Below the pieces are notes generated by a model that was given only the letters and a program-made list of their open reading frames with translations, ran no database searches and was not told where the DNA came from. From IMG/VR virus record IMGVR_UViG_2671180458_000011: a stretch of DNA of 23,839 nucleotides; one strand, 5' to 3'. The translations under genes were made by a program, and so were the position numbers. Shown piece after piece: positions 8,290 to 19,194 of the stretch; position 1 is the first letter of the stretch; the number at the start of each line of letters is the position of its first letter. This DNA is from a virus. Lineage: Duplodnaviria; Heunggongvirae; Uroviricota; Caudoviricetes.

Positions 8290-9371
8290 TGCCTTATCAG
8301 CCCTTACCACTGGCGCAACTGATCACACAGACACAACAGGATATCAGCCAGCGCCTGCCCGGTTCGCAGCCGGGCGTGAATGAAACCACCCTGAATGCCA
8401 TTGCGTATGCACTCGCGGGTCTGTCAGCACAGGAGCATGAACATCTGGCCTGGATCTCCCGGCAGATAATTCCGACAGAAGCTGATGAAGCCGAACTCCT
8501 GAAACACTGCGCATTCTGGGGTGTCATCCGTAAACCGGCTTCCCGCGCTGACGGACCGGTACAACTGATGCTGACCACGGATGCAGGGATCACGGAAGGC
8601 GTACTCCTTCAGCGAAGCGATGGTGTTGTGTACCGCATCACCGGCTCTGCGACCGGAAAAGCCGGAACACTGAATGTTAATGTGGAGGCGGAAAGTGCGG
8701 GGCGCGCTGGAAATACCCCGACCGGAACCCGCCTGTCCTTTATCACGCCACAGGCGGGCATCAACCAGACAGCCACGGTCACCGGCACGGGACTCACCGG
8801 TGGTGCGGATGTGGAAACGGTGCCGGAGTTGCTGTCCAGGCTGGTATTCCGGGTACAGAACCCGCCATCAGGGGGAACACAGTATGATTTTGAACGCTGG
8901 GCACGGGAAGTACCGGGCGTGACGCGGGCATGGTGTAAGCCTGAATGGCCTGAGGCGGGTAGTGTTGGTGTGACTTTTGTTCAGGATAATAACCCTGACA
9001 TTTTCCCCGGAGAAGGTGATGTGAAGCGGGTGGCGGATTATATCCGCAGTCATGATGATCCGGCGACGGGCCAGCCCGTTGGTCAGCCACTTGGGCCGAC
9101 AATCAGCGTGTTTAAGCTGACCAATAAGCCGGTGGCGTTTGAGATCAGGATTGTACCCAAAACGCCGGAAAATCAGGCTGCCGTAAAACAGGCATTAACG
9201 GACCTGCTTTATAACGAATCGCGGCCGGGTGGACTTGTATTGCCTTCATCATTCTGGCGGGCTGTTGCAGGGGTGAAAGGACTGGAGGATTTTGAAGTTC
9301 GCAGCCCGCTGAAGTCCGTGATGGCCGGAGATACAGAGTTGCTGACCGTGGGGGAAATCACATGGCTGTAA
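8286..9371 (+). CDS. baseplate J-like protein (Mu gp47-like)
   Basis: 361-aa ORF overlapping both neighbours; size and position of baseplate J family. Confidence 0.8.
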   Translation: MMPYQPLPLAQLITQTQQDISQRLPGSQPGVNETTLNAIAYALAGLSAQEHEHLAWISRQIIPTEADEAELLKHCAFWGVIRKPASRADGPVQLMLTTDAGITEGVLLQRSDGVVYRITGSATGKAGTLNVNVEAESAGRAGNTPTGTRLSFITPQAGINQTATVTGTGLTGGADVETVPELLSRLVFRVQNPPSGGTQYDFERWAREVPGVTRAWCKPEWPEAGSVGVTFVQDNNPDIFPGEGDVKRVADYIRSHDDPATGQPVGQPLGPTISVFKLTNKPVAFEIRIVPKTPENQAAVKQALTDLLYNESRPGGLVLPSSFWRAVAGVKGLEDFEVRSPLKSVMAGDTELLTVGEITWL

Positions 9372-9922
9372 CCCTGACCCCGCATCAGCGTGCCCTGTTG
9401 CAGTTGCTGCCTGACGGGCTGGCATGGGATAAGCGGCCGTCATCCGTTCTTGCGGCTTTGTGCCTGGGCCTCAGTCATTCCACGGAGCGTGTTTCCTGGA
9501 CCGGTAACCAGATGCTGGCAGAACGTTTTCCTGATTCATCCCGTCTGCTGCTGGAAGACTGGGAGCGTTATCTGGGGTTACCGGAATGTGATATGACCGG
9601 CGCAACCATTCAGGAGCGTCAGCGTTATGCCGGGAATAAATACCGGATGAAACCCTCTCTTAACCGTGAATTTTATATCCGGTTTGCGGCAGAGTTTGGT
9701 TATGAAATAGATATTCAGCCATCACCGGATTCACAGTGGGTCAGTATTGTCACGATTAACAGTGAAACCGGCTACCGGAATATGAATGTGCTGGATGATA
9801 TTCTCACCCCGCTGCGTATTTATGAGGGTGGTGCGCTGGAATGTATTCTGAACCGTTATAAGCCTGCATGGCAGACGTTTATTTACGTGTATGCAAACAG
9901 CCATGAAGAGGAGACTATTTAA
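9362..9922 (+). CDS. tail protein gp48-like (DUF2313/YmfQ-like)
   Basis: 186-aa ORF directly upstream of the tail fiber gene; its stop overlaps the tail fiber ATG (TAATG at 9920-9924). Confidence 0.7.
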   Translation: MAVTLTPHQRALLQLLPDGLAWDKRPSSVLAALCLGLSHSTERVSWTGNQMLAERFPDSSRLLLEDWERYLGLPECDMTGATIQERQRYAGNKYRMKPSLNREFYIRFAAEFGYEIDIQPSPDSQWVSIVTINSETGYRNMNVLDDILTPLRIYEGGALECILNRYKPAWQTFIYVYANSHEEETI

Positions 9923-12604: not shown

Positions 12605-14644
12605 ATGACGTCCAAATGGGTTCAACTATCATCAATGCCCGGAAACTTTACTGTTAAAGTTTCCGGTGGTACAGCGGCATTTCTTGAGGCTCCCTTTCCT
12701 CCGGCCGAAACAAAAGGAGGAATGACATTTGCTGACTGTCTCATCAGTTTTAATACACGGGATTGCCTGTGGGTAAGGCCAGTATCCGGTGATCCGAGTG
12801 TGGAAATTACCGGAGCGGGTATTGGTGCGGTCATTCCGTTAAGTGCTGATGTTGCCGGTACTGCTGAACCGTCAGACTGGGATAATGCTGAAACACATAC
12901 CCGTCCGTCAGGAAATGAAACTGCTTCCAGCTCCCCTTCCTGGTATTACGTGGTGGTTCTTGCTGGTCAGTCAAACGGTATGGCTTACGGTGAAGGTCTG
13001 CCACTGCCGGAGACATATGACCGCCCCGAACCGCGTATTATGCAGTTAGCCCGTCGCAGTACAGTCACGCCGGGAGGTAAAGCCTGTCAGTATAACGACA
13101 TCATTCTGGCCGACCACTGTCTGCATGATGTGCAGGATATGAGTGGAAAAAATCACCCGAAAGCGGATGTGGCTAAAGGGCAATATGGCACCGTGGGTCA
13201 GGGGCTTCACATTGCCAAAAAACTGCTGCCGTTTATTCCGGCAGATGCGGGGATTCTGCTGGTTCCCTGCTGCCGTGGTGGTTCTGCATTCACGGCGGGT
13301 GCTGACGGCACGTACAGTGACAGCACGGGTGCTTCAGAGGACTCAGCCCGCTGGGGTGTGGATAAGCCGCTGTATAAGGACTTAATCAGCCGGACAAAAG
13401 CGGCACTGGCGAAGAACCCGAAAAACCGCCTGCTTGCTGTGGTGTGGATGCAGGGCGAGTTTGATATTGATGCGAAGCCGACGGAGCATTCTGCGCTGTT
13501 TCTGGCGATGGTGGAAAAATTCCGCGCAGACCTGGCTGAACAGGCGGAACAGTGTACCGGTGGCAGTGCTGCTGGCGTTCCGTGGATTTGTGGTGATACC
13601 ACGTATTTCTGGAAACAGAAAAACGAACAGGCATACCAGGCAATCTATGACGGCTACAAAAATAAAACAGATAAAAACATTCATTTCGTCCCATTAATGA
13701 CAGATGAAAATGGCGCGAATGTACCCACCAACAATCCGGCAGAAGACCCGGATATTGAATCCATTGGTTATTACGGCTCAACGTGGCGTAACAGTGCCGC
13801 CACCTGGACATCTGCGGACCGGGCCAGCCATTTCAGTTCATGGGCACGTCGTGGGATTATTTCCGACCGTCTGGCCACGGCAGTTCTGACTCATGCGGGG
13901 CGAACCACAGTAAAAGCCGATGTTCCATCTTCTGAAACTGAAGCACCAGTGCCGTCACCTTCAGAAACTGAAGCAGTAACCACAACACTGCTGTCTTACC
14001 GTGTCAGTGAGTCAGAAGGAAATCTGAAAGCCCAGGGCTGGGAGCCGGCTGGCGGTAAAGCTGAAATTATCAGTGATGCAGGAGGCACAGGTGGTAAGGC
14101 AATGAAACTGACCAAGGAAACAGGTAAATCATCCTGGTATCTGGATCATGATGCCGGTACTGGTGCTGAACTGCTGAAAAATGGTGGTTTAATCAGTTGT
14201 CGTTTTAAAGTACCGGGCGACCTGGTGGCAAACCAGTATGTCATGGCGCTTTACTGGCCGGTTTCCTCTCTGCCGCAGGGTGTCACCCTGACAGGGGATG
14301 CAGGGAATAATCTGCTGGCATCGTTCTACATCCAGACAGACGCAAAAGACCTGAATGTGATGTACCACAATGCAAAAGTGGCAACAAATAACCAGAAACT
14401 GGGAACCTTTGGTGCATTTGATAATGAATGGCATACGCTGGCCTTCCGTTTTGCAGGAAATAACAGCCTTCAGGTTATTCCGGTTATTGATGGTCAGGAT
14501 GGTGCCGCGTTTACCCTGACGCAGTCACCAGTAGGAACTTTCCCGGTGGACAAACTCCGCGTAACGGATATCACAAAAAATGCAACTTACCCGGTGCTGA
14601 TTGACAGCATTGTGGTGGAAGTGAAAAAAGCGGTAACAGAATAA
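12605..14644 (+). CDS. SGNH/SASA-type esterase with C-terminal lectin-like domain (NanS-p-like sialate O-acetylesterase candidate)
   Basis: 679 aa; GQSNG block at about residue 120, WMQGEFD block and a D-x-x-x-H block consistent with SASA/DUF303 esterases; Pro/Ser/Thr/Glu-rich linker then about 230-aa beta-rich domain. Family call from motif recognition only. Confidence 0.5.
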   Translation: MTSKWVQLSSMPGNFTVKVSGGTAAFLEAPFPPAETKGGMTFADCLISFNTRDCLWVRPVSGDPSVEITGAGIGAVIPLSADVAGTAEPSDWDNAETHTRPSGNETASSSPSWYYVVVLAGQSNGMAYGEGLPLPETYDRPEPRIMQLARRSTVTPGGKACQYNDIILADHCLHDVQDMSGKNHPKADVAKGQYGTVGQGLHIAKKLLPFIPADAGILLVPCCRGGSAFTAGADGTYSDSTGASEDSARWGVDKPLYKDLISRTKAALAKNPKNRLLAVVWMQGEFDIDAKPTEHSALFLAMVEKFRADLAEQAEQCTGGSAAGVPWICGDTTYFWKQKNEQAYQAIYDGYKNKTDKNIHFVPLMTDENGANVPTNNPAEDPDIESIGYYGSTWRNSAATWTSADRASHFSSWARRGIISDRLATAVLTHAGRTTVKADVPSSETEAPVPSPSETEAVTTTLLSYRVSESEGNLKAQGWEPAGGKAEIISDAGGTGGKAMKLTKETGKSSWYLDHDAGTGAELLKNGGLISCRFKVPGDLVANQYVMALYWPVSSLPQGVTLTGDAGNNLLASFYIQTDAKDLNVMYHNAKVATNNQKLGTFGAFDNEWHTLAFRFAGNNSLQVIPVIDGQDGAAFTLTQSPVGTFPVDKLRVTDITKNATYPVLIDSIVVEVKKAVTE

Positions 14645-14649
14645 AAAAA

Positions 14650-14678
14650 TCCCGCCGGTCATGATATGGCTGGCGGGA
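14650..14678. terminator. stem-loop after the esterase gene; canonical intrinsic terminator only when read on the minus strand
   Basis: Stem TCCCGCC/GGCGGGA (extendable with wobble pairs) with A7 run immediately 5' on the + strand, which is a U-tract 3' of the hairpin on the minus strand. Confidence 0.4.
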
Positions 14679-14790
14679 GCTACCTAACCCATAAAGGAAA
14701 ATAAAAATACTCCCGAAGGAGTGGTTATCAGTCGCTTCGATGTTTTTACCCGATAACGAATTATGTAGTCAATATCAAAGGTAAGGTTAT

Positions 14791-14973
14791 ATGACATTCG
14801 TTCATACAATGCTGCTTTATTTCTGCGCAGTGGTCAGTGCGTTATATCTGGTGAGCGGCGGTTATAAGGTCATCAGAAATTATATTCGCCGTAAAATTGA
14901 TGATGCGGCAGCTGAAAAACTCAGTAAAACAGCACAGGCACCGTCATCCCCAAACGACCCGACCCCGCTCTGA
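14791..14973 (+). CDS. small predicted membrane protein (60 aa), unknown function
   Basis: Single N-terminal hydrophobic helix then charged tail; AAAGGTAAGG Shine-Dalgarno-like sequence upstream; AT-rich foreign-looking DNA. Confidence 0.4.
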   Translation: MTFVHTMLLYFCAVVSALYLVSGGYKVIRNYIRRKIDDAAAEKLSKTAQAPSSPNDPTPL

Positions 14974-15008
14974 TAACGGGGCAATATACCTGCAAAAGGA
15001 GAATATTC

Positions 15009-15254
15009 ATGCCAGAGATTAAAGGCACGGTTACTGAAGAGCTTGTCAAACAGGCACTTTATTCTGAAGAAGTGAACCGCGTGCTGAAGGCGCAGGTTCG
15101 CAAGGATTTTGAGGCACAAATCGACGCATATGTTGATGAAGTGCTGGCCCGAATGGTTGGCCATTCTCCGGCTGAAAACAGCACGGAGAATGAGCCTCAA
15201 GCCGTAGAGCAACCAGAGCCGGTTCAGCCCGGAACTGACGGTACTATGATGTAA
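15009..15254 (+). CDS. small acidic protein (81 aa), unknown function
   Basis: AAAGGAGA Shine-Dalgarno 7 nt upstream of ATG; helical-looking N-terminal half and acidic Pro/Glu-rich tail; followed by a hairpin. Confidence 0.45.
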   Translation: MPEIKGTVTEELVKQALYSEEVNRVLKAQVRKDFEAQIDAYVDEVLARMVGHSPAENSTENEPQAVEQPEPVQPGTDGTMM

Positions 15255-15263
15255 CAATACCGA

Positions 15264-15283
15264 CCGGCAGGTTTCCCTGCCGG
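15264..15283. terminator. hairpin between convergent small genes
   Basis: CCGGCAGG-TTTC-CCTGCCGG, 8-bp stem with 4-nt loop, between the + gene ending 15254 and the minus gene ending 15293. Confidence 0.4.
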
Positions 15284-15292
15284 GTGAATTTG

Positions 15293-15463
15293 TTAATGCA
15301 CGTTTTGTGTACTTTCCCTCCGGGGAGAACAGGCAGGACATATCAGCATCCTGAAACAGGACGCATTTTGGGGTTTGTATGTCTTGCCATTTTGAGATCG
15401 AGAACGGCGATAGATGAGCTGTAAGGGAGTCTTACAGGCAGGGCAAACAGGCTCTTTATCCAT
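15293..15463 (-). CDS. small zinc-ribbon protein (56 aa, two CPAC motifs), unknown function
   Basis: Minus-strand ATG at 15463 preceded by AGGAGA with 8-nt spacing; Cys-Pro-Ala-Cys at residues 7-10 and 41-44. The ORF track's longer version (to 15487) starts upstream of the Shine-Dalgarno sequence. Confidence 0.4.
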   Translation of the reverse strand: MDKEPVCPACKTPLQLIYRRSRSQNGKTYKPQNASCFRMLICPACSPRRESTQNVH

Positions 15464-15565
15464 GATAAAGATCTCCTTTTTATGCATCTCTGCTTTACAG
15501 GAGACCGGGGAATATCATAGGATACGCCACGAGCTCGAAGTAAAGCATTGATGCGAATTTGTTCC

Positions 15566-15595
15566 AGGTCCAGATAGCTGTAACTATCTGGACCT
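15566..15595. promoter_or_regulatory. perfect 12-bp inverted repeat with 6-bp spacer (candidate operator or hairpin)
   Basis: AGGTCCAGATAG ctgtaa CTATCTGGACCT in the divergent intergenic region between the zinc-ribbon gene and com. Confidence 0.4.
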
Positions 15596-15643
15596 CCCTT
15601 TATGTAGTATCCTGTTGATTTGAAACATACTACATATACGCGC

Positions 15644-15821
15644 GATCCTACCTTCACTGTATAAAAAGTCAATAAAATGATCATTTTATGATCGTTTTCA
15701 CCACCTAAGTCTTCGTTTTCTTTAAGTAAATAATCACCGCCCTGAATCATTGTTGATGACTTTTCAATCTATTTGTTGTATCAATTAAACAAATCGAATC
15801 GATCGTTTTTGTCGATCGATT
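15644..15821 (+). promoter_or_regulatory. GATC-dense mom-operon control region (candidate Dam-methylation-sensitive promoter region)
   Basis: Five GATC sites in about 175 bp (15644, 15679, 15690, 15801, 15814), including a 9-bp inverted repeat AATCGATCG n7 CGATCGATT at 15797-15821 just upstream of com. Confidence 0.45.
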
Positions 15822-15864
15822 GCATGAGAAAGGCATCAACAACAAAGCAGGAGGTTATGCGGCC

Positions 15865-16065
15865 ATGTATCGAAACATACGGTGCCGACACTGCAATAAG
15901 CTACTGGCACGGGCCAGTTTCAGTTATCTGGAAGTAAAATGTCCGCGCTGTAAAACCCTCAATCAAATCACATCTCCGAGCGCCACAGAGCACCCCACAT
16001 ACACAAGGAAATCCTGTCGTGGGGAACAGAAAGCAAGCCACATCCCGTATCATCAGCACGCCTGA
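15865..16065 (+). CDS. com: Com-like zinc-finger translational activator of mom
   Basis: [14 protein letters not shown]...VKCPRCKTL...EHPT matches the Mu Com four-cysteine pattern; AGGAGG Shine-Dalgarno 10 nt upstream of ATG 15865 (ORF track starts at TTG 15820); 3' end overlaps the next gene as in Mu. Confidence 0.7.
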
Positions 16066-16756
16066 ACTTATTCGCTATAACGACAATATCGTTGGTTATG
16101 GCTCCCGTGAGTTGCGGGTTGAGACAATAAGTTGCTGGCTGGCCAGACTGGTCATCGTCAATAAACATTACAGCCACCGTTTCGTAAATAACTCCTACCT
16201 TCATCTGGGCATATTTTCAGAACGGGAGCTGGTTGGCGTAATGCAATGGGGCTATGCCCTTAATCCAAACAGTGGTGCACGCGTCGTAACGGGCACGCGG
16301 AACCGTGAATATATGGAGCTTAACCGGTTATGGCTGCATGACTGTATGCCGAGAAACTCCGAATCAAGGGCAATCAGTTACGCGCTCAAGCTAATCAGGC
16401 AGCTTTATCCGCAGGTACAGTGGGTTCAGTCGTTTGCAGATGAGCGTTGTGGCTGTCTTGGTGTCGTGTATCAGGCAAGCAATTTTGATTATGTAGGCAG
16501 CCACGAATCAACATTCTATGAACTTGATGGCGAGTGGTATCACGAGATTTGCAGGAATGCCATTAAACGAGGCGGACAGCGAGGTGAACATCTGAGGGCT
16601 AATATCGACAGAGCCAGTGTTCATAAATTCCGTCAGTTTCGTTACATCCGGTTTCTGAACAAGAGGGCCAGAAAACGCCTCAACACAAAGCTATTCAAAG
16701 TCCAGCCTTACCCAAAACCACAAACAGTTAAAACTGGTTTAAAAGAGAGTGAGTGA
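16019..16756 (+). CDS. mom: Mom-like DNA modification protein
   Basis: 245-aa ORF (GTG start) beginning inside the 3' end of com, the characteristic com-mom overlap; last gene before the prophage right end as in Mu. Called from context, not from remembered sequence. Confidence 0.6.
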
Positions 16757-18044
16757 ACGCTTAAAAACTCATTCTAAAACCCAAAAGAAAAGCGCCGATT
16801 TAGTATCAAATAAGTTGCGTATCGGCGTTTTTCAGCGGTATCAAATGAAATGCAAATCGGTATCAAAAAAATCGCCGCGCTATAATAAGCAGCTCAGAGC
16901 TGCCAATAAAGTCACTAACGTGCTGGATACAGAACTCACATCAGCCCGTGCCGCGGAACGTAAGGCCCAGCAAACTGCACAACAAGGTATGAAGGAAGAA
17001 GAGCGAGAGTTGTGCGCGTCACATTTTCCAGTGGTGACTTTGGAGCAATTGCCTGACATTCGCGATTTAGAACGTCAACATGAGCGGGGAATTCAGCATG
17101 AAATTGAAAGAGTTAAAGCTGAACTACATCGACTGAACATTGAGTTGACCAAACGTATGTCTGAAGCCAAACGTGTGGATACCGGGGCGCTCGTTGAGGC
17201 AGGGGCTGATTTGGACGATATTACTGTTTATTTACAGCGTTTGCAGGAACTGACCGAAGAAGCCCTGCCGGAAAAGCTCAATCGCTTCCTTGATTATCTT
17301 AACCGTTCATCCGATGACGGCGTAACACAACTGCTTAGCCATATTGAGCATGAGGTGCTGGTGATTGAGGAGCGCCTCAATGAACTCAATGAAACTATGT
17401 TCAGGGTTGATTTTCAGCCGTATCGCTACCTGCGTCTGGATACCAAAAAAGTTGTCCATGAAAGCCTGCGCACGCTTGAAAAAGCACAGCGTCAGCTAAA
17501 TGCCGCCCGATTTGTTGATGATAATGGCGAGAGCTATTATAAGGCTTTGCAGATACTGGTGGCGCAATTGCGGGATGCTTGTGAACGAAACCGTACCCTG
17601 GGAGCAAAAGCGCTACTGGATCCCCGTTTTCGACTGGAGTTCGCCGTATCGGTGATGGATCGTCAGAGCGGAAATGTGATTGAGTCTCGTACCGGCTCAC
17701 AGGGTGGTAGCGGTGGAGAAAAAGAGATTATCGCTTCTTACGTGTTAACAGCTTCACTTAGCTACGCACTTTGTCCTGCGGGGAGCCGTTATCCGCTTTT
17801 CGGTACCATTATCCTTGATGAAGCCTTCTCCCGCAGTTCTCATGCGGTGGCGGGTAGGATCATTGCCGCGCTTAGAGAATTTGGCTTACATGCAGTATTT
17901 ATCACCCCCAATAAGGAAATGCGCCTGCTGCGTGACCATACTCGTTCGGCGATTGTTGTCCACCGGCGCGGTCAGAATTCCAATATGGCTTCTCTGAGCT
18001 GGGAAGAGCTTGAACGACACTACCAGCGACGGGGGAACGCGTAG
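16749..18044 (+). pseudogene. jetC 3' fragment: C-terminal half of a Wadjet SMC-like ATPase, truncated by the prophage
   Basis: Contains signature-like GSGGEKE, Walker B IILDEAF and an H-loop His but no Walker A; the first 48 codons or so (16749-16896) are a Lys-rich read-through of phage-end sequence; coiled-coil-like sequence begins about 16897. Confidence 0.6.
16800..16896 (+). repeat. prophage right-end repeat array (candidate transposase-binding sites) ending in CA
   Basis: Three direct copies of GTATCAAA at 16803, 16838 and 16860 plus ATCGGCG/ATCGCCG motifs; GCGTTTTTC at 16825-16833 resembles part of the Mu R-end; terminal CA at 16895-16896. Confidence 0.4.
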
Positions 18045-18045
18045 G

Positions 18046-19194
18046 ATGTATTCCCCAGATGAATTGCGTGAAAAGCTTGCCCGGCAGTGGGATAGCGCAA
18101 AACTTCGGGCTGAACGCTTACTGTCCCCCGGTAACTGGCCGCTCTGCCTGCCTATTGGTAAACCTTCCACGAAAATATTTGCAGAGCAGACTCAGCGCGT
18201 TTTGCAGCACGTACAGCGATGGAGGCAAGTTGCGGTTGGGCACGTGGAATGGGAAGCGGTGAGTTATCGGGCAAGTGATACACCAGTATTAATGCCGTTG
18301 CGCTGGATTCTGAATAGCCCTTCTGAGTGGATCAACGCCGCTGCGGATCCGGTTGTGAGCCGGGAATTTCGCTTGCTGGAAGGAATTATTGAACAAGTTA
18401 ATCCCATTTTTCACCCGCTGTTGGTAAAGCATCGCTCTCTCTGGCGGCACAAAGATCCGCAGGGCGTCATCAGCGCCGCCACGCTGGCCTGCCGATTAGA
18501 GCCGGGCTGCGCAAAAGGGCTGCCGTTAAGATTGCTTTCCGGGCAAGGAGTGGATACCAAATTTATCGAGAATAATATTTCGTTATTAACCCGACTGTTA
18601 GACGTGCGGTTTTCAGGAGAAGCCAGCGAGCAGGGATTAACAACTTTTCTTGATGCTTTTGATGAGTCCAGTCACTGGGTTTTAGTTGTACCATTATCAC
18701 CCGGCTTACTTCCTTTTAAAAAATGCCGGGTAACAACGGCGGAACTGGCAGAAACAACATTACCTGCGTCGCAAGTACTGGTGGTTGAAAATGAGCAGTG
18801 TCTGCATCATCTTCCAGCATTATCTGACACTATCGCGATTTTAGGCTGTGGCCTGGACGTGCAATGGCTATCCAGTTCTGTTCTGGATGAAAAACGCGTT
18901 GCTTATTGGGGGGACATGGATAGCTGGGGATTACTGATGCTGGCGAGAGCCAGGCGCTGTCGTCCGACGCTTGATGCCCTGCTCATGAACCGTGAGTTGT
19001 TTGAGCAGTATGCCAGTCATAGCGCCGTTCCAGAACCGGTCATAGCGAAGGAAGCTGTACCTGATGGCTTGCTTAACGAAGAGGCCGATTTTTATCGCTA
19101 CTTAACCCGTTTACCGTGTGGTCGTCTGGAGCAGGAGTTTTTGCCAGTGGGGATTGCGGAAGAGGTGCTTCTCAGGTGGGGAAAAGAGAGTTAA
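18046..19194 (+). CDS. JetD-like Toprim-domain protein (Wadjet subunit D)
   Basis: ATG at 18046 two nt after the jetC stop (ORF track starts at TTG 18010); about 382 aa with VVENE and YWGDMD motifs typical of the DUF2220 Toprim-like domain. Confidence 0.65.
   Translation: MYSPDELREKLARQWDSAKLRAERLLSPGNWPLCLPIGKPSTKIFAEQTQRVLQHVQRWRQVAVGHVEWEAVSYRASDTPVLMPLRWILNSPSEWINAAADPVVSREFRLLEGIIEQVNPIFHPLLVKHRSLWRHKDPQGVISAATLACRLEPGCAKGLPLRLLSGQGVDTKFIENNISLLTRLLDVRFSGEASEQGLTTFLDAFDESSHWVLVVPLSPGLLPFKKCRVTTAELAETTLPASQVLVVENEQCLHHLPALSDTIAILGCGLDVQWLSSSVLDEKRVAYWGDMDSWGLLMLARARRCRPTLDALLMNRELFEQYASHSAVPEPVIAKEAVPDGLLNEEADFYRYLTRLPCGRLEQEFLPVGIAEEVLLRWGKES

Follow-up and report, generated by a model that had tools for sequence, protein, structure and literature searches.

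A compensated, hypervariable inverted repeat beside com-mom in Sp18-type Mu-like prophages, a candidate hairpin of a cargo-gene leader RNA

Results

Analysis of the virus record IMGVR_UViG_2671180458_000011, a 23,839-nucleotide stretch of DNA (hereafter the window, to which all coordinates refer) that forms the right end of a Sp18-type Mu-like prophage of Escherichia coli O157:H7, revealed a perfect inverted repeat, D1, close to the com-mom operon that is genuine and, within the searches made, undescribed. The element is of a familiar kind, in that it works like an ordinary stem-loop of the leader or terminator type; what is unusual is its evolutionary pattern, a compensated hairpin in a patch that has diverged by ~35% between near-identical flanks and that occurs in cassette-like tandem units. 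The observations comprise a non-chance, compensated dyad that is unique in the prophage, two covarying hairpins that flank it, a promoter geometry that is conserved in position, and a modular boundary at the Shine-Dalgarno (SD) sequence of a neighboring cargo gene. As the leading explanation, although a tentative one, we propose that the dyad is a hairpin selected for its structure only, within the leader RNA of a leftward moron (an accessory cargo gene), which would mean that the predicted minus-strand promoter, P(-), is active and that the minus strand is the one that matters.

The inverted repeat is not a chance feature

The window reads AGGTCCAGATAG-ctgtaa-CTATCTGGACCT at 15566-15595, and the perfect 12 + 12 dyad with a 6-nt spacer was therefore present as the original prediction had described it. 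When the window was shuffled 2000 times with dinucleotides preserved, a mean of 0.04 perfect 12-bp inverted repeats (spacers of at most 20 nt) arose per shuffled window, with one or more in 3.1% of shuffles (analytic expectation, 0.03), a rarity indicating that D1 is not a chance feature, as had also been proposed. Two repeats of this class were found in the window, D1 and a second one (CCGGAAACTTTA-ctgt-TAAAGTTTCCGG, 12639-12666), which lies 34 nt into the DUF6645 coding sequence and is just as unlikely by chance.

The D1 stem contains six G-C pairs among its 12 and thus has the stable, GC-rich character of the stem-loop of a Rho-independent terminator, with a calculated stability of approximately -20 kcal/mol as an RNA hairpin and -11.5 kcal/mol (z = -6.5) as a DNA hairpin. 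It is separated by 79 bp from the ATG at 15487 of a minus-strand zinc-ribbon open reading frame (ORF), by 103 bp from the better-supported ATG of the same ORF at 15463, and by 271 bp from the com ATG, in agreement with the distances of about 100 and 270 bp given previously. A scan of positions 14600-16400 against Rfam at a permissive threshold returned chance-level matches only (best scores of 18-19 bits versus gathering thresholds of 50-60, E at least 0.3).

The arms of the dyad change in concert

D1 and an adjoining spacer make up a hypervariable patch, bordered by the near-invariant sequences AAGCATTGATGC (15543-15554) and TATGTAGTA (15601-15609), with an identity between alleles of only 59-67%, compared to 97-100% for the 230-bp flanks on either side. 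The patch is 46, 52 or 54 nt long among the prophages, or 131 nt where it is tandem. Nevertheless, at least seven alleles keep a stem of 8-13 bp, and the loop is always 6 nt (Table 1). The differences between arms include both compensated substitutions (T-A to C-G, A-T to G-C and G-C to A-T) and compensated indels (allele B gains a C-G pair; alleles D and E are without one A-T pair), while the inner (A)TAG-N6-CTA(T) is almost invariant, being replaced by CAG-N6-CTG in L130 only. MAFFT gave structurally inconsistent alignments of these short hairpins, and covariance-model alignments were used instead; these showed 5 of the 11 modeled pairs of the D1 helix changed on both sides and none changed on one side only. 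Compensatory change over at least seven alleles, together with the location of the dyad within a predicted transcribed leader, supports a structured RNA element, one of two readings in the original prediction, the other of which, an operator for a late activator, was not supported (see below). Absence of the dyad from homologous prophages with conserved flanks had been named as part of the outcome that would refute the prediction; the sequence is indeed replaced in such prophages, but a dyad is still kept.

Table 1. Alleles of the D1 hairpin (plus strand shown; L numbers are our handles for loci)
Allele	Source	Left arm	Loop	Right arm	Pairing
A	window	AGGTCCAGATAG	ctgtaa	CTATCTGGACCT	perfect 12 bp
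B	Sakai and most others	GACCCAGCATAG	ttccag	CTATGCTGGGTT	one G.T at stem base
C	L007, L001, others	CGGCCCAGAATAG	ttcgcg	CTATCTGGGTCG (CTAT-CTGGGTCG)	one bulge, one G.T
D	L075	GACCCGGTAG	ttccac	CTACCGGGTC	perfect 10 bp
E	L130	GCCCGGCAG	gtcgca	CTGCCGGGC	perfect 9 bp
F	L172	CCCCCCATAG	ttcgcg	CTATGCGGGGG	one bulge
G	L173/L174	GACCCAGTAG	gtagca	CTACTGGGTC	perfect 10 bp

A hairpin with a 6-nt loop was found at the same place even in lineages whose flanks are only 60-75% identical. Several prophages (L004, L018, L022, L023 and L074 and, independently, L076 and L173-L175) carry two tandem units of ~79 bp, each consisting of AAGCATTGATGC, a spacer, a hairpin and TTTATGTAGT. All four combinations of two spacers with two hairpin types were seen (s1+B, s1+C-like, s2+B and s2+C), and part of the diversity can thus be attributed to unequal exchange between units. 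Allele identity is not tied to the neighboring proteins: two unrelated cargo genes were found with allele B, and one and the same Com protein (WP_001443803.1) with allele A, allele B, the tandem form and a degenerate form. We also considered whether prophages residing in the same genome carry distinct alleles, and rejected this idea because several genomes hold the same allele two or three times.

The dyad lies among three covarying hairpins downstream of a positionally conserved promoter

Folding of the aligned minus strand with RNAalifold yielded three consecutive hairpins, D2, D1 and D0, which fill the ~175 nt from a conserved minus-strand sigma-70 promoter, P(-), to the ribosome-binding site of the zinc-ribbon gene (Table 2). 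Compensated changes were found in all three, including compensated versions of D0 in E. coli M18 and L076. In the three-hairpin structure 95% of cells were paired, compared to 31-50% when the partners were slid, and 10-15 pairs had changed on both sides versus ~4 in shuffles (0 of 500 shuffles). The 186-nt minus-strand leader RNA had a predicted stability of -64.2 kcal/mol (z = -6.3).

The distribution of G.U pairs favored the minus strand for D2 (18 versus 4) and for D0 (35 versus 9), with one internal U.G of D0 present in all sequences and an internal G.U of the L172 D2 pairing on the minus strand only. Similarly, the D1-type hairpins in the first units of L004, L174 and L175 are fully paired on the minus strand only, through internal U.G pairs.

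The predicted promoter P(-) is placed such that transcription would start at ~15637-15639, at the foot of D2. Its hexamers and their 16-nt spacing were kept in four sequence versions that differ in spacer sequence, with -10 elements of TAAGAT in L075 and L130 and of TACGAT in M18, and even in L076, L172 and L175, where the surrounding sequence is different, a near-consensus TTGACG-16-TATAAT is present at the same distance. The promoter always ends 6 nt before a TATGTAG at D2. This positional conservation is the strongest argument for a leftward transcript that starts at the D2 foot. A GATC site (15644-15647) overlaps the -10 hexamer (TAGGATC). The minus strand thus combines a predicted promoter, covariation-backed pairs, an SD sequence (AAGGAG, 15478-15473) and a start codon (15463) in the order expected of a structured 5' leader.

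Adjacent to the P(-) -35 hexamer is a perfect 18-bp palindrome, ATAAAATGATCATTTTAT (15672-15689), with a GATC at its center. The center lies near -42.5, the position class of class II or C-type activator sites, and its sequence is unlike that of the Mu C site; the palindrome is perfect in the E. coli Sp18 group only.

Homology with prophages that carry other minus-strand cargo begins at ~15484, the foot of D0, just before the SD sequence of each cargo gene. The other cargo found behind the same leader included a 175-residue membrane-anchored zinc-ribbon protein (M18) and an ORF of 45-53 codons (STEC1587). The location of this boundary indicates that the conserved module is the promoter plus the three-hairpin leader and that the cargo is exchangeable.

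Table 2. Features of the com-proximal region of the window
Feature	Coordinates	Strand	Description
Zinc-ribbon gene	15293..15463	-	cargo behind the leader; ~56 residues from ATG 15463 (MDKEPVCPACK...); SD AAGGAG 15478-15473
135-residue ORF	15343..15750	-	N-terminal part of the RefSeq 154-residue coding sequence/pseudogene; spans D0, D1, D2 and P(-); judged non-coding
D0	15484..15554	-	long imperfect hairpin GCATC-TC-TGCTTTAC ... GTAAAGCA-TT-GATGC; directly upstream of SD
Plus-strand promoter-like site	15494..15523	+	TTTACA-18-TAGGAT inside D0; relevant to the antisense-RNA alternative only
Hypervariable patch	15555..15600	.	spacer and D1 hairpin; 46 nt
D1	15566..15595	-	arms 15566-15577 and 15584-15595, 12 bp each, 6-nt loop; middle stem-loop of the predicted leader RNA
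D2	15601..15636	-	TATGTAGTAT-N16-ATACTACATA; arms conserved, loop varies; predicted 5'-terminal stem-loop of the transcript
P(-)	15645..15672	-	predicted sigma-70 promoter; TTGACT (15672-15667), 16-nt spacer, TAGGAT (15650-15645)
com	ATG at 15866
mom	16019-16756		Pfam Mom, E = 4.5e-77

The annotated 154-residue protein is probably an artifact

In RefSeq the dyad falls inside a minus-strand coding sequence (CDS) of 154 codons (ECs_4996 in Sakai, WP_115801860.1), which is at odds with its earlier placement in a control region. However, that ORF is probably not real, and the description as a control region is thus probably right. The CDS is annotated as a frameshifted pseudogene in a record 99.8% identical to the window, and it was frameshifted, for different reasons, in four of the five full-length records examined; it is intact in Wll001 and Sakai. 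Several further properties argue that it is spurious: a single reading frame cannot run through patches of 46, 52, 54 and 131 nt, no SD sequence precedes position 15750, the N-terminal 100 residues lack a Pfam match, the ORF contains the conserved promoter, and the distant relatives L075 and L130, which retain the zinc-ribbon ORF, have no equivalent. The RefSeq entry is therefore probably an annotation artifact that appears to have arisen by accidental fusion of the non-coding promoter-leader (within 15343-15750) to the real zinc-ribbon ORF of ~56 codons (within 15293-15487). Despite the intact CDS in Sakai and Wll001, these results make it extremely improbable that D1 is part of the coding sequence of an ECs_4996-type protein (minus strand, ...GGPDSYSYLDLEQ...) with only incidental symmetry, not least since arm-to-arm compensation is not a product of coding constraint.

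The real gene is most likely that for the 56-residue zinc-ribbon protein starting at ATG 15463. Pfam returned only sub-threshold zinc-ribbon matches for this protein, and comparison with Com revealed no significant similarity beyond the CxxC motif. An independent homologous zinc-ribbon ORF is present in L075, and a truncated one in L130, with lengths of 48-61 residues in these two relatives.

Distribution of the element and its genomic context

From left to right, the window contains an invertible tail-fiber region with a Gin-type recombinase, the genes for DUF6645, DUF1378 and DUF826, the small minus-strand gene, com, mom and host DNA. A 616-bp segment around the dyad was found in 233 of 5426 complete E. 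coli genomes and in two Shiga toxin (Stx) phages with an inserted Mu-like phage. Among the same genomes, allele A occupied seven places in seven genomes, all identical, while allele C was found in 29 genomes and allele B in 180; for alleles A, B and C, every match listed sits under the same annotated hypothetical-protein feature beside com. In Sakai, the dyad occupies positions 5078406-5078431 of NC_002695.2. A dispersed repeat, such as a hairpin element resembling repetitive extragenic palindromes or miniature inverted-repeat transposable elements, would require many copies in varied contexts and was rejected, given that allele A has only seven places and one context.

The gin-com gap of phage Mu itself is just 94 bp, and the whole region is absent there. 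When the covariance model R1 was applied to 24 Mom-encoding genome loci, to Mu- or D108-like viral loci and to distant Com loci, it detected no copy of the element, and a pattern scan of metagenomes gave 29 loci, nine of them real, with no new allele. As judged from these sequence comparisons, the element is confined to the Sp18-type group and a few relatives.

Discussion

A structured leader for exchangeable cargo

According to the explanation that we tentatively favor, leftward transcription from P(-) would yield an untranslated leader of ~175 nt that folds as D2, D1 and D0, with D1 the second of three stem-loops, and that runs up to the ribosome-binding site of an exchangeable moron gene, here that for the 56-residue zinc-ribbon protein. 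The promoter-leader module would belong to the prophage backbone beside com-mom, with different prophages attaching different cargo to it. By keeping a long leader folded, the hairpins could guard against both Rho loading and 5'-end-dependent decay, and the hairpin might also hinder transcription arriving from the left from reaching the toxic com-mom genes. The local divergence would then result from weak constraint on sequence and from reassortment between the tandem 79-bp units, each made of a spacer and a hairpin.

A number of points weigh against this proposal. P(-) is a predicted promoter, and the stability and Rho-protection role envisaged would be a generic one. The M18 prophage (L003, 2995-3146) keeps the promoter, a compensated D0 and a different cargo gene of 175 codons although its D1 is degenerate and the right arm of its D2 is deleted, suggesting that cargo expression can do without D1, at least in that lineage. 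Strand preference within D1 is mixed, unlike that of D2 and D0: the common alleles B and C each gain a G.T pair on the plus strand only (9 versus 2 cells), and a weak T-rich tail follows D1 on the plus strand. Compensation in a palindrome is, moreover, alike for a minus-strand RNA, a plus-strand RNA, a DNA cruciform and a symmetric protein site, and the covariation counts come from model-fitted alignments of few independent alleles.

Structured 5' leaders with a 5'-terminal stabilizer hairpin are known, as exemplified by the ompA leader. The region described here resembles leaders of this type in the succession of a predicted promoter, a 5'-end stem-loop, more stem-loops and an exposed SD sequence, and in that structure rather than sequence is constrained. 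It differs in that three hairpins cover nearly the whole leader and in that the middle one is hypervariable and sometimes duplicated.

Alternative explanations

The terminator-like character of D1 raises the possibility that it acts on the plus strand, either as an intrinsic terminator forming a second barrier against rightward transcription into the toxic com-mom genes or as the 3' hairpin of an RNA of ~70-75 nt, transcribed from the promoter-like TTTACA (15494)-18 nt-TAGGAT (15523) and antisense to the leader of the leftward gene. Rho-independent terminator stems typically evolve by compensatory change, as D1 does, and D1 shares with them a GC-rich base, a 6-nt loop, a stem of ~-20 kcal/mol and a T-rich segment on the plus strand. 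It was the only plus-strand terminator-like site that a consensus scan detected in 15200-15900; all alleles have a conserved, T-rich stretch just past the stem (CCCTTTATGT, TTTCACTTTTATGT and CTCTTTATGT), the extra G.T pairs of alleles B and C lengthen the stem on this strand only, the spacer ahead of the hairpin is U-rich, and the plus-strand hexamers are conserved while the spacer between them varies. M18, in addition, shows a joint loss of D1, half of D2 and the -10-like hexamer. Nevertheless, the T tract is short and interrupted, beginning after CCC in allele A, and its tail (CCCUUUAUGU, 5 T in 8) passes a lenient scan only, with somewhat better tails in B and D; TransTermHP-style tail scores, calculated by hand, were weak or marginal (~-2.0 for A, -2.7 to -4.0 for B, C and D, and -2.35 for E). 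The minus strand has no U run after D1. No plus-strand gene lies directly ahead of D1, and the plus-strand gene upstream already has a tailed hairpin of its own behind it, at 15265-15284. The conservation of the plus-strand hexamers can be explained without a promoter, since they coincide with an arm and the apical loop of D0. Furthermore, the minus strand gives the better pairing of D0 and D2, C.A mismatches arise in several D1-type hairpins when these are read on the plus strand, and the only small RNA (sRNA) candidate of Sp18 in a table of Hfq-crosslinked RNAs, EcOnc37 (Sakai 5077340-5077410; PMC4104026 Table S2), maps ~1 kb to the left. On balance we regard this plus-strand explanation, terminator and antisense RNA taken jointly, as rather unlikely. 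A more elaborate version, in which the patch is the specificity part of a cis-antisense RNA switch, with the ~70-nt plus-strand RNA ending in the dyad pairing with the leader of the leftward cargo mRNA and the spacer-hairpin cassette being reshuffled between 79-bp units under diversifying selection or hairpin-templated mutation, is doubtful and receives little of our credence as a whole. Cis-encoded antisense RNAs control several mobile elements (IS10 RNA-OUT/RNA-IN, hok/sok and P22 sar/ant), and a hypervariable hairpin region is typical of the specificity determinants of such systems. The likeness here is that convergent promoter-like sites would give a hairpin-ended RNA of ~70 nt fully complementary to the opposite leader; a plus-strand promoter-like site and a hairpin are present, and the resemblance rests on promoter-like hexamers only. 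Both RNAs here are predictions, and no toxin is evident: a 17-codon ORF in D0 (MLYFELVAYPMIFPGLL) was considered as a small toxin and rejected, as it changes non-conservatively (L to R, M to K and P to H/N) and is frameshifted in M18. That co-resident prophages often share an allele also argues against selection for distinct specificities.

Two further alternatives place the dyad in DNA. One is that D1 is a self-maintaining palindrome with little or no function, in which the patch is diversified by slippage and by quasi-palindrome template switching, both of which also transfer changes between the arms, after which unequal crossing-over between tandem units shuffles the pieces. Template-switch correction of quasi-palindromes is known in E. 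coli, and this explanation would account for arms that are perfect or nearly so in almost every allele, beyond what most functional hairpins need, for a patch that is a local hot spot of divergence, for tandem 79-bp duplications in at least two distant lineages, for the reassortment of spacer and hairpin types, and for the decay in M18 without loss of the neighboring genes. It does not readily explain why a hairpin with a constant 6-nt loop persists at the same place where the flanks have diverged widely, why D1 stands in register with two covarying hairpins and a conserved promoter, or why some alleles pair through G.U wobbles, which are not expected from template copying, and we thus consider it, with its crossing-over step, an unlikely explanation. 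The other is that D1 is a duplex-DNA operator or recognition site for a dimeric protein, whether a C/Mor-type activator, a repressor or a recombinase with a 12-6-12 core site. Perfect two-fold symmetry and a constant 6-bp spacer would suit such a protein, as would a location that, for some choices of promoter, is upstream of a possible promoter on either strand, and a protein that reads only the almost constant inner TAG-N6-CTA is conceivable. The original prediction had suggested a C-like late activator in particular. D1 and the Mu C sites (Plys, PI, PP and Pmom) are both dyad-symmetric and belong to Mu-type phages near com-mom. However, the site bound by C in Mu is an imperfect dyad of 16 bp that is centered at -43.5, overlaps the -35 region and occurs at four promoters (PMC2582627), whereas D1 is a 30-bp, 12-6-12 element with variable arms, ~250 bp from the com-proximal GATC/promoter region and lacking a -10-like hexamer ~33 bp from its center on either strand. 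The proposed check, a search for the same dyad elsewhere in the prophage and upstream of late operons, gave no second dyad in the window of 24 kb, nor any with three or fewer mismatches when the whole allele-A prophage of strain F7508 (38.7 kb, within 40.5 kb of sequence) was searched; the few half-site-like matches in the prophage were all inside coding sequences or host DNA. Compensated indels alter both the sequence and the length of the arms, such that the outer CC(A/G)G motifs stand 17 to 21 bp apart among alleles, and the arms change between prophages with identical Com and nearly identical zinc-ribbon proteins, so that the allele does not covary with either. No tyrosine recombinase is annotated in the prophage. 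D1 accordingly does not fit a Mu C operator, and a protein-binding site of any of these kinds is very unlikely.

Resemblance to the Com target was also considered. The target stem-loop of Com in the mom translation-initiation region is, as D1 would be, an RNA hairpin in the same operon neighborhood near a small zinc-ribbon protein, but it lies within the com-mom mRNA downstream of com, whereas D1 lies upstream of com, in a different predicted transcript, and varies while Com remains identical.

Implications and additional observations

If the leader explanation that we favor is right, the region would be read as a promoter and three-hairpin leader for exchangeable morons, not as the gene for a 154-residue protein or the operator of a late activator; on this conservative reading it would be a routine regulatory RNA structure of modest general interest. 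An antisense switch, were it real, would constitute a small, naturally hypervariable RNA module in Mu-like prophages. Sp18-type Mu-like prophages are present in ~4% of complete E. coli genomes and are common in O157 and other Shiga toxin-producing E. coli (STEC), and D1 offers a clean natural case of a hairpin kept purely by compensation, usable for models of leader stability, insulation or antisense control beside the toxic com-mom genes, with the M18 prophage serving as a natural "knock-out" of D1.

Other features of the region deserve mention. The hairpin at 15265-15284 (CCGGCAGG-tttc-CCTGCCGG) lies between the convergent DUF826 (plus-strand) and zinc-ribbon (minus-strand) genes and is probably a bidirectional terminator. 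EcOnc37 maps to ~14507-14577 on the minus strand, antisense to the 3' end of the DUF6645 gene, if the coordinates of the 2014 table are those of NC_002695.2, with a version offset of up to ~130 bp. Another dyad, AATCGATCG-N7-CGATCGATT (15797-15821), contains two GATC sites and lies 45-69 bp before the com ATG; this pair is far nearer to com than are the three GATC sites of Mu Pmom, implying that the architecture of the mom promoter must differ from that of Mu.

The related Mu-like phage L130 (IMGVR_UViG_2537561637_000002, 8408-9614) has the same leader and com, followed, in place of Mom, by a protein that resembles a C5 cytosine DNA methyltransferase as judged from its translation alone. Within 16749-19194, the right end of the prophage borders a Wadjet JetC-like ATPase of which the C-terminal part is present (SbcC Walker B motif, E = 4e-18), and an intact JetD (DUF3322 + JetD_C) comes next. 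The Mu-like prophage of this strain seems to have inserted into, and disrupted, an anti-plasmid defense gene.

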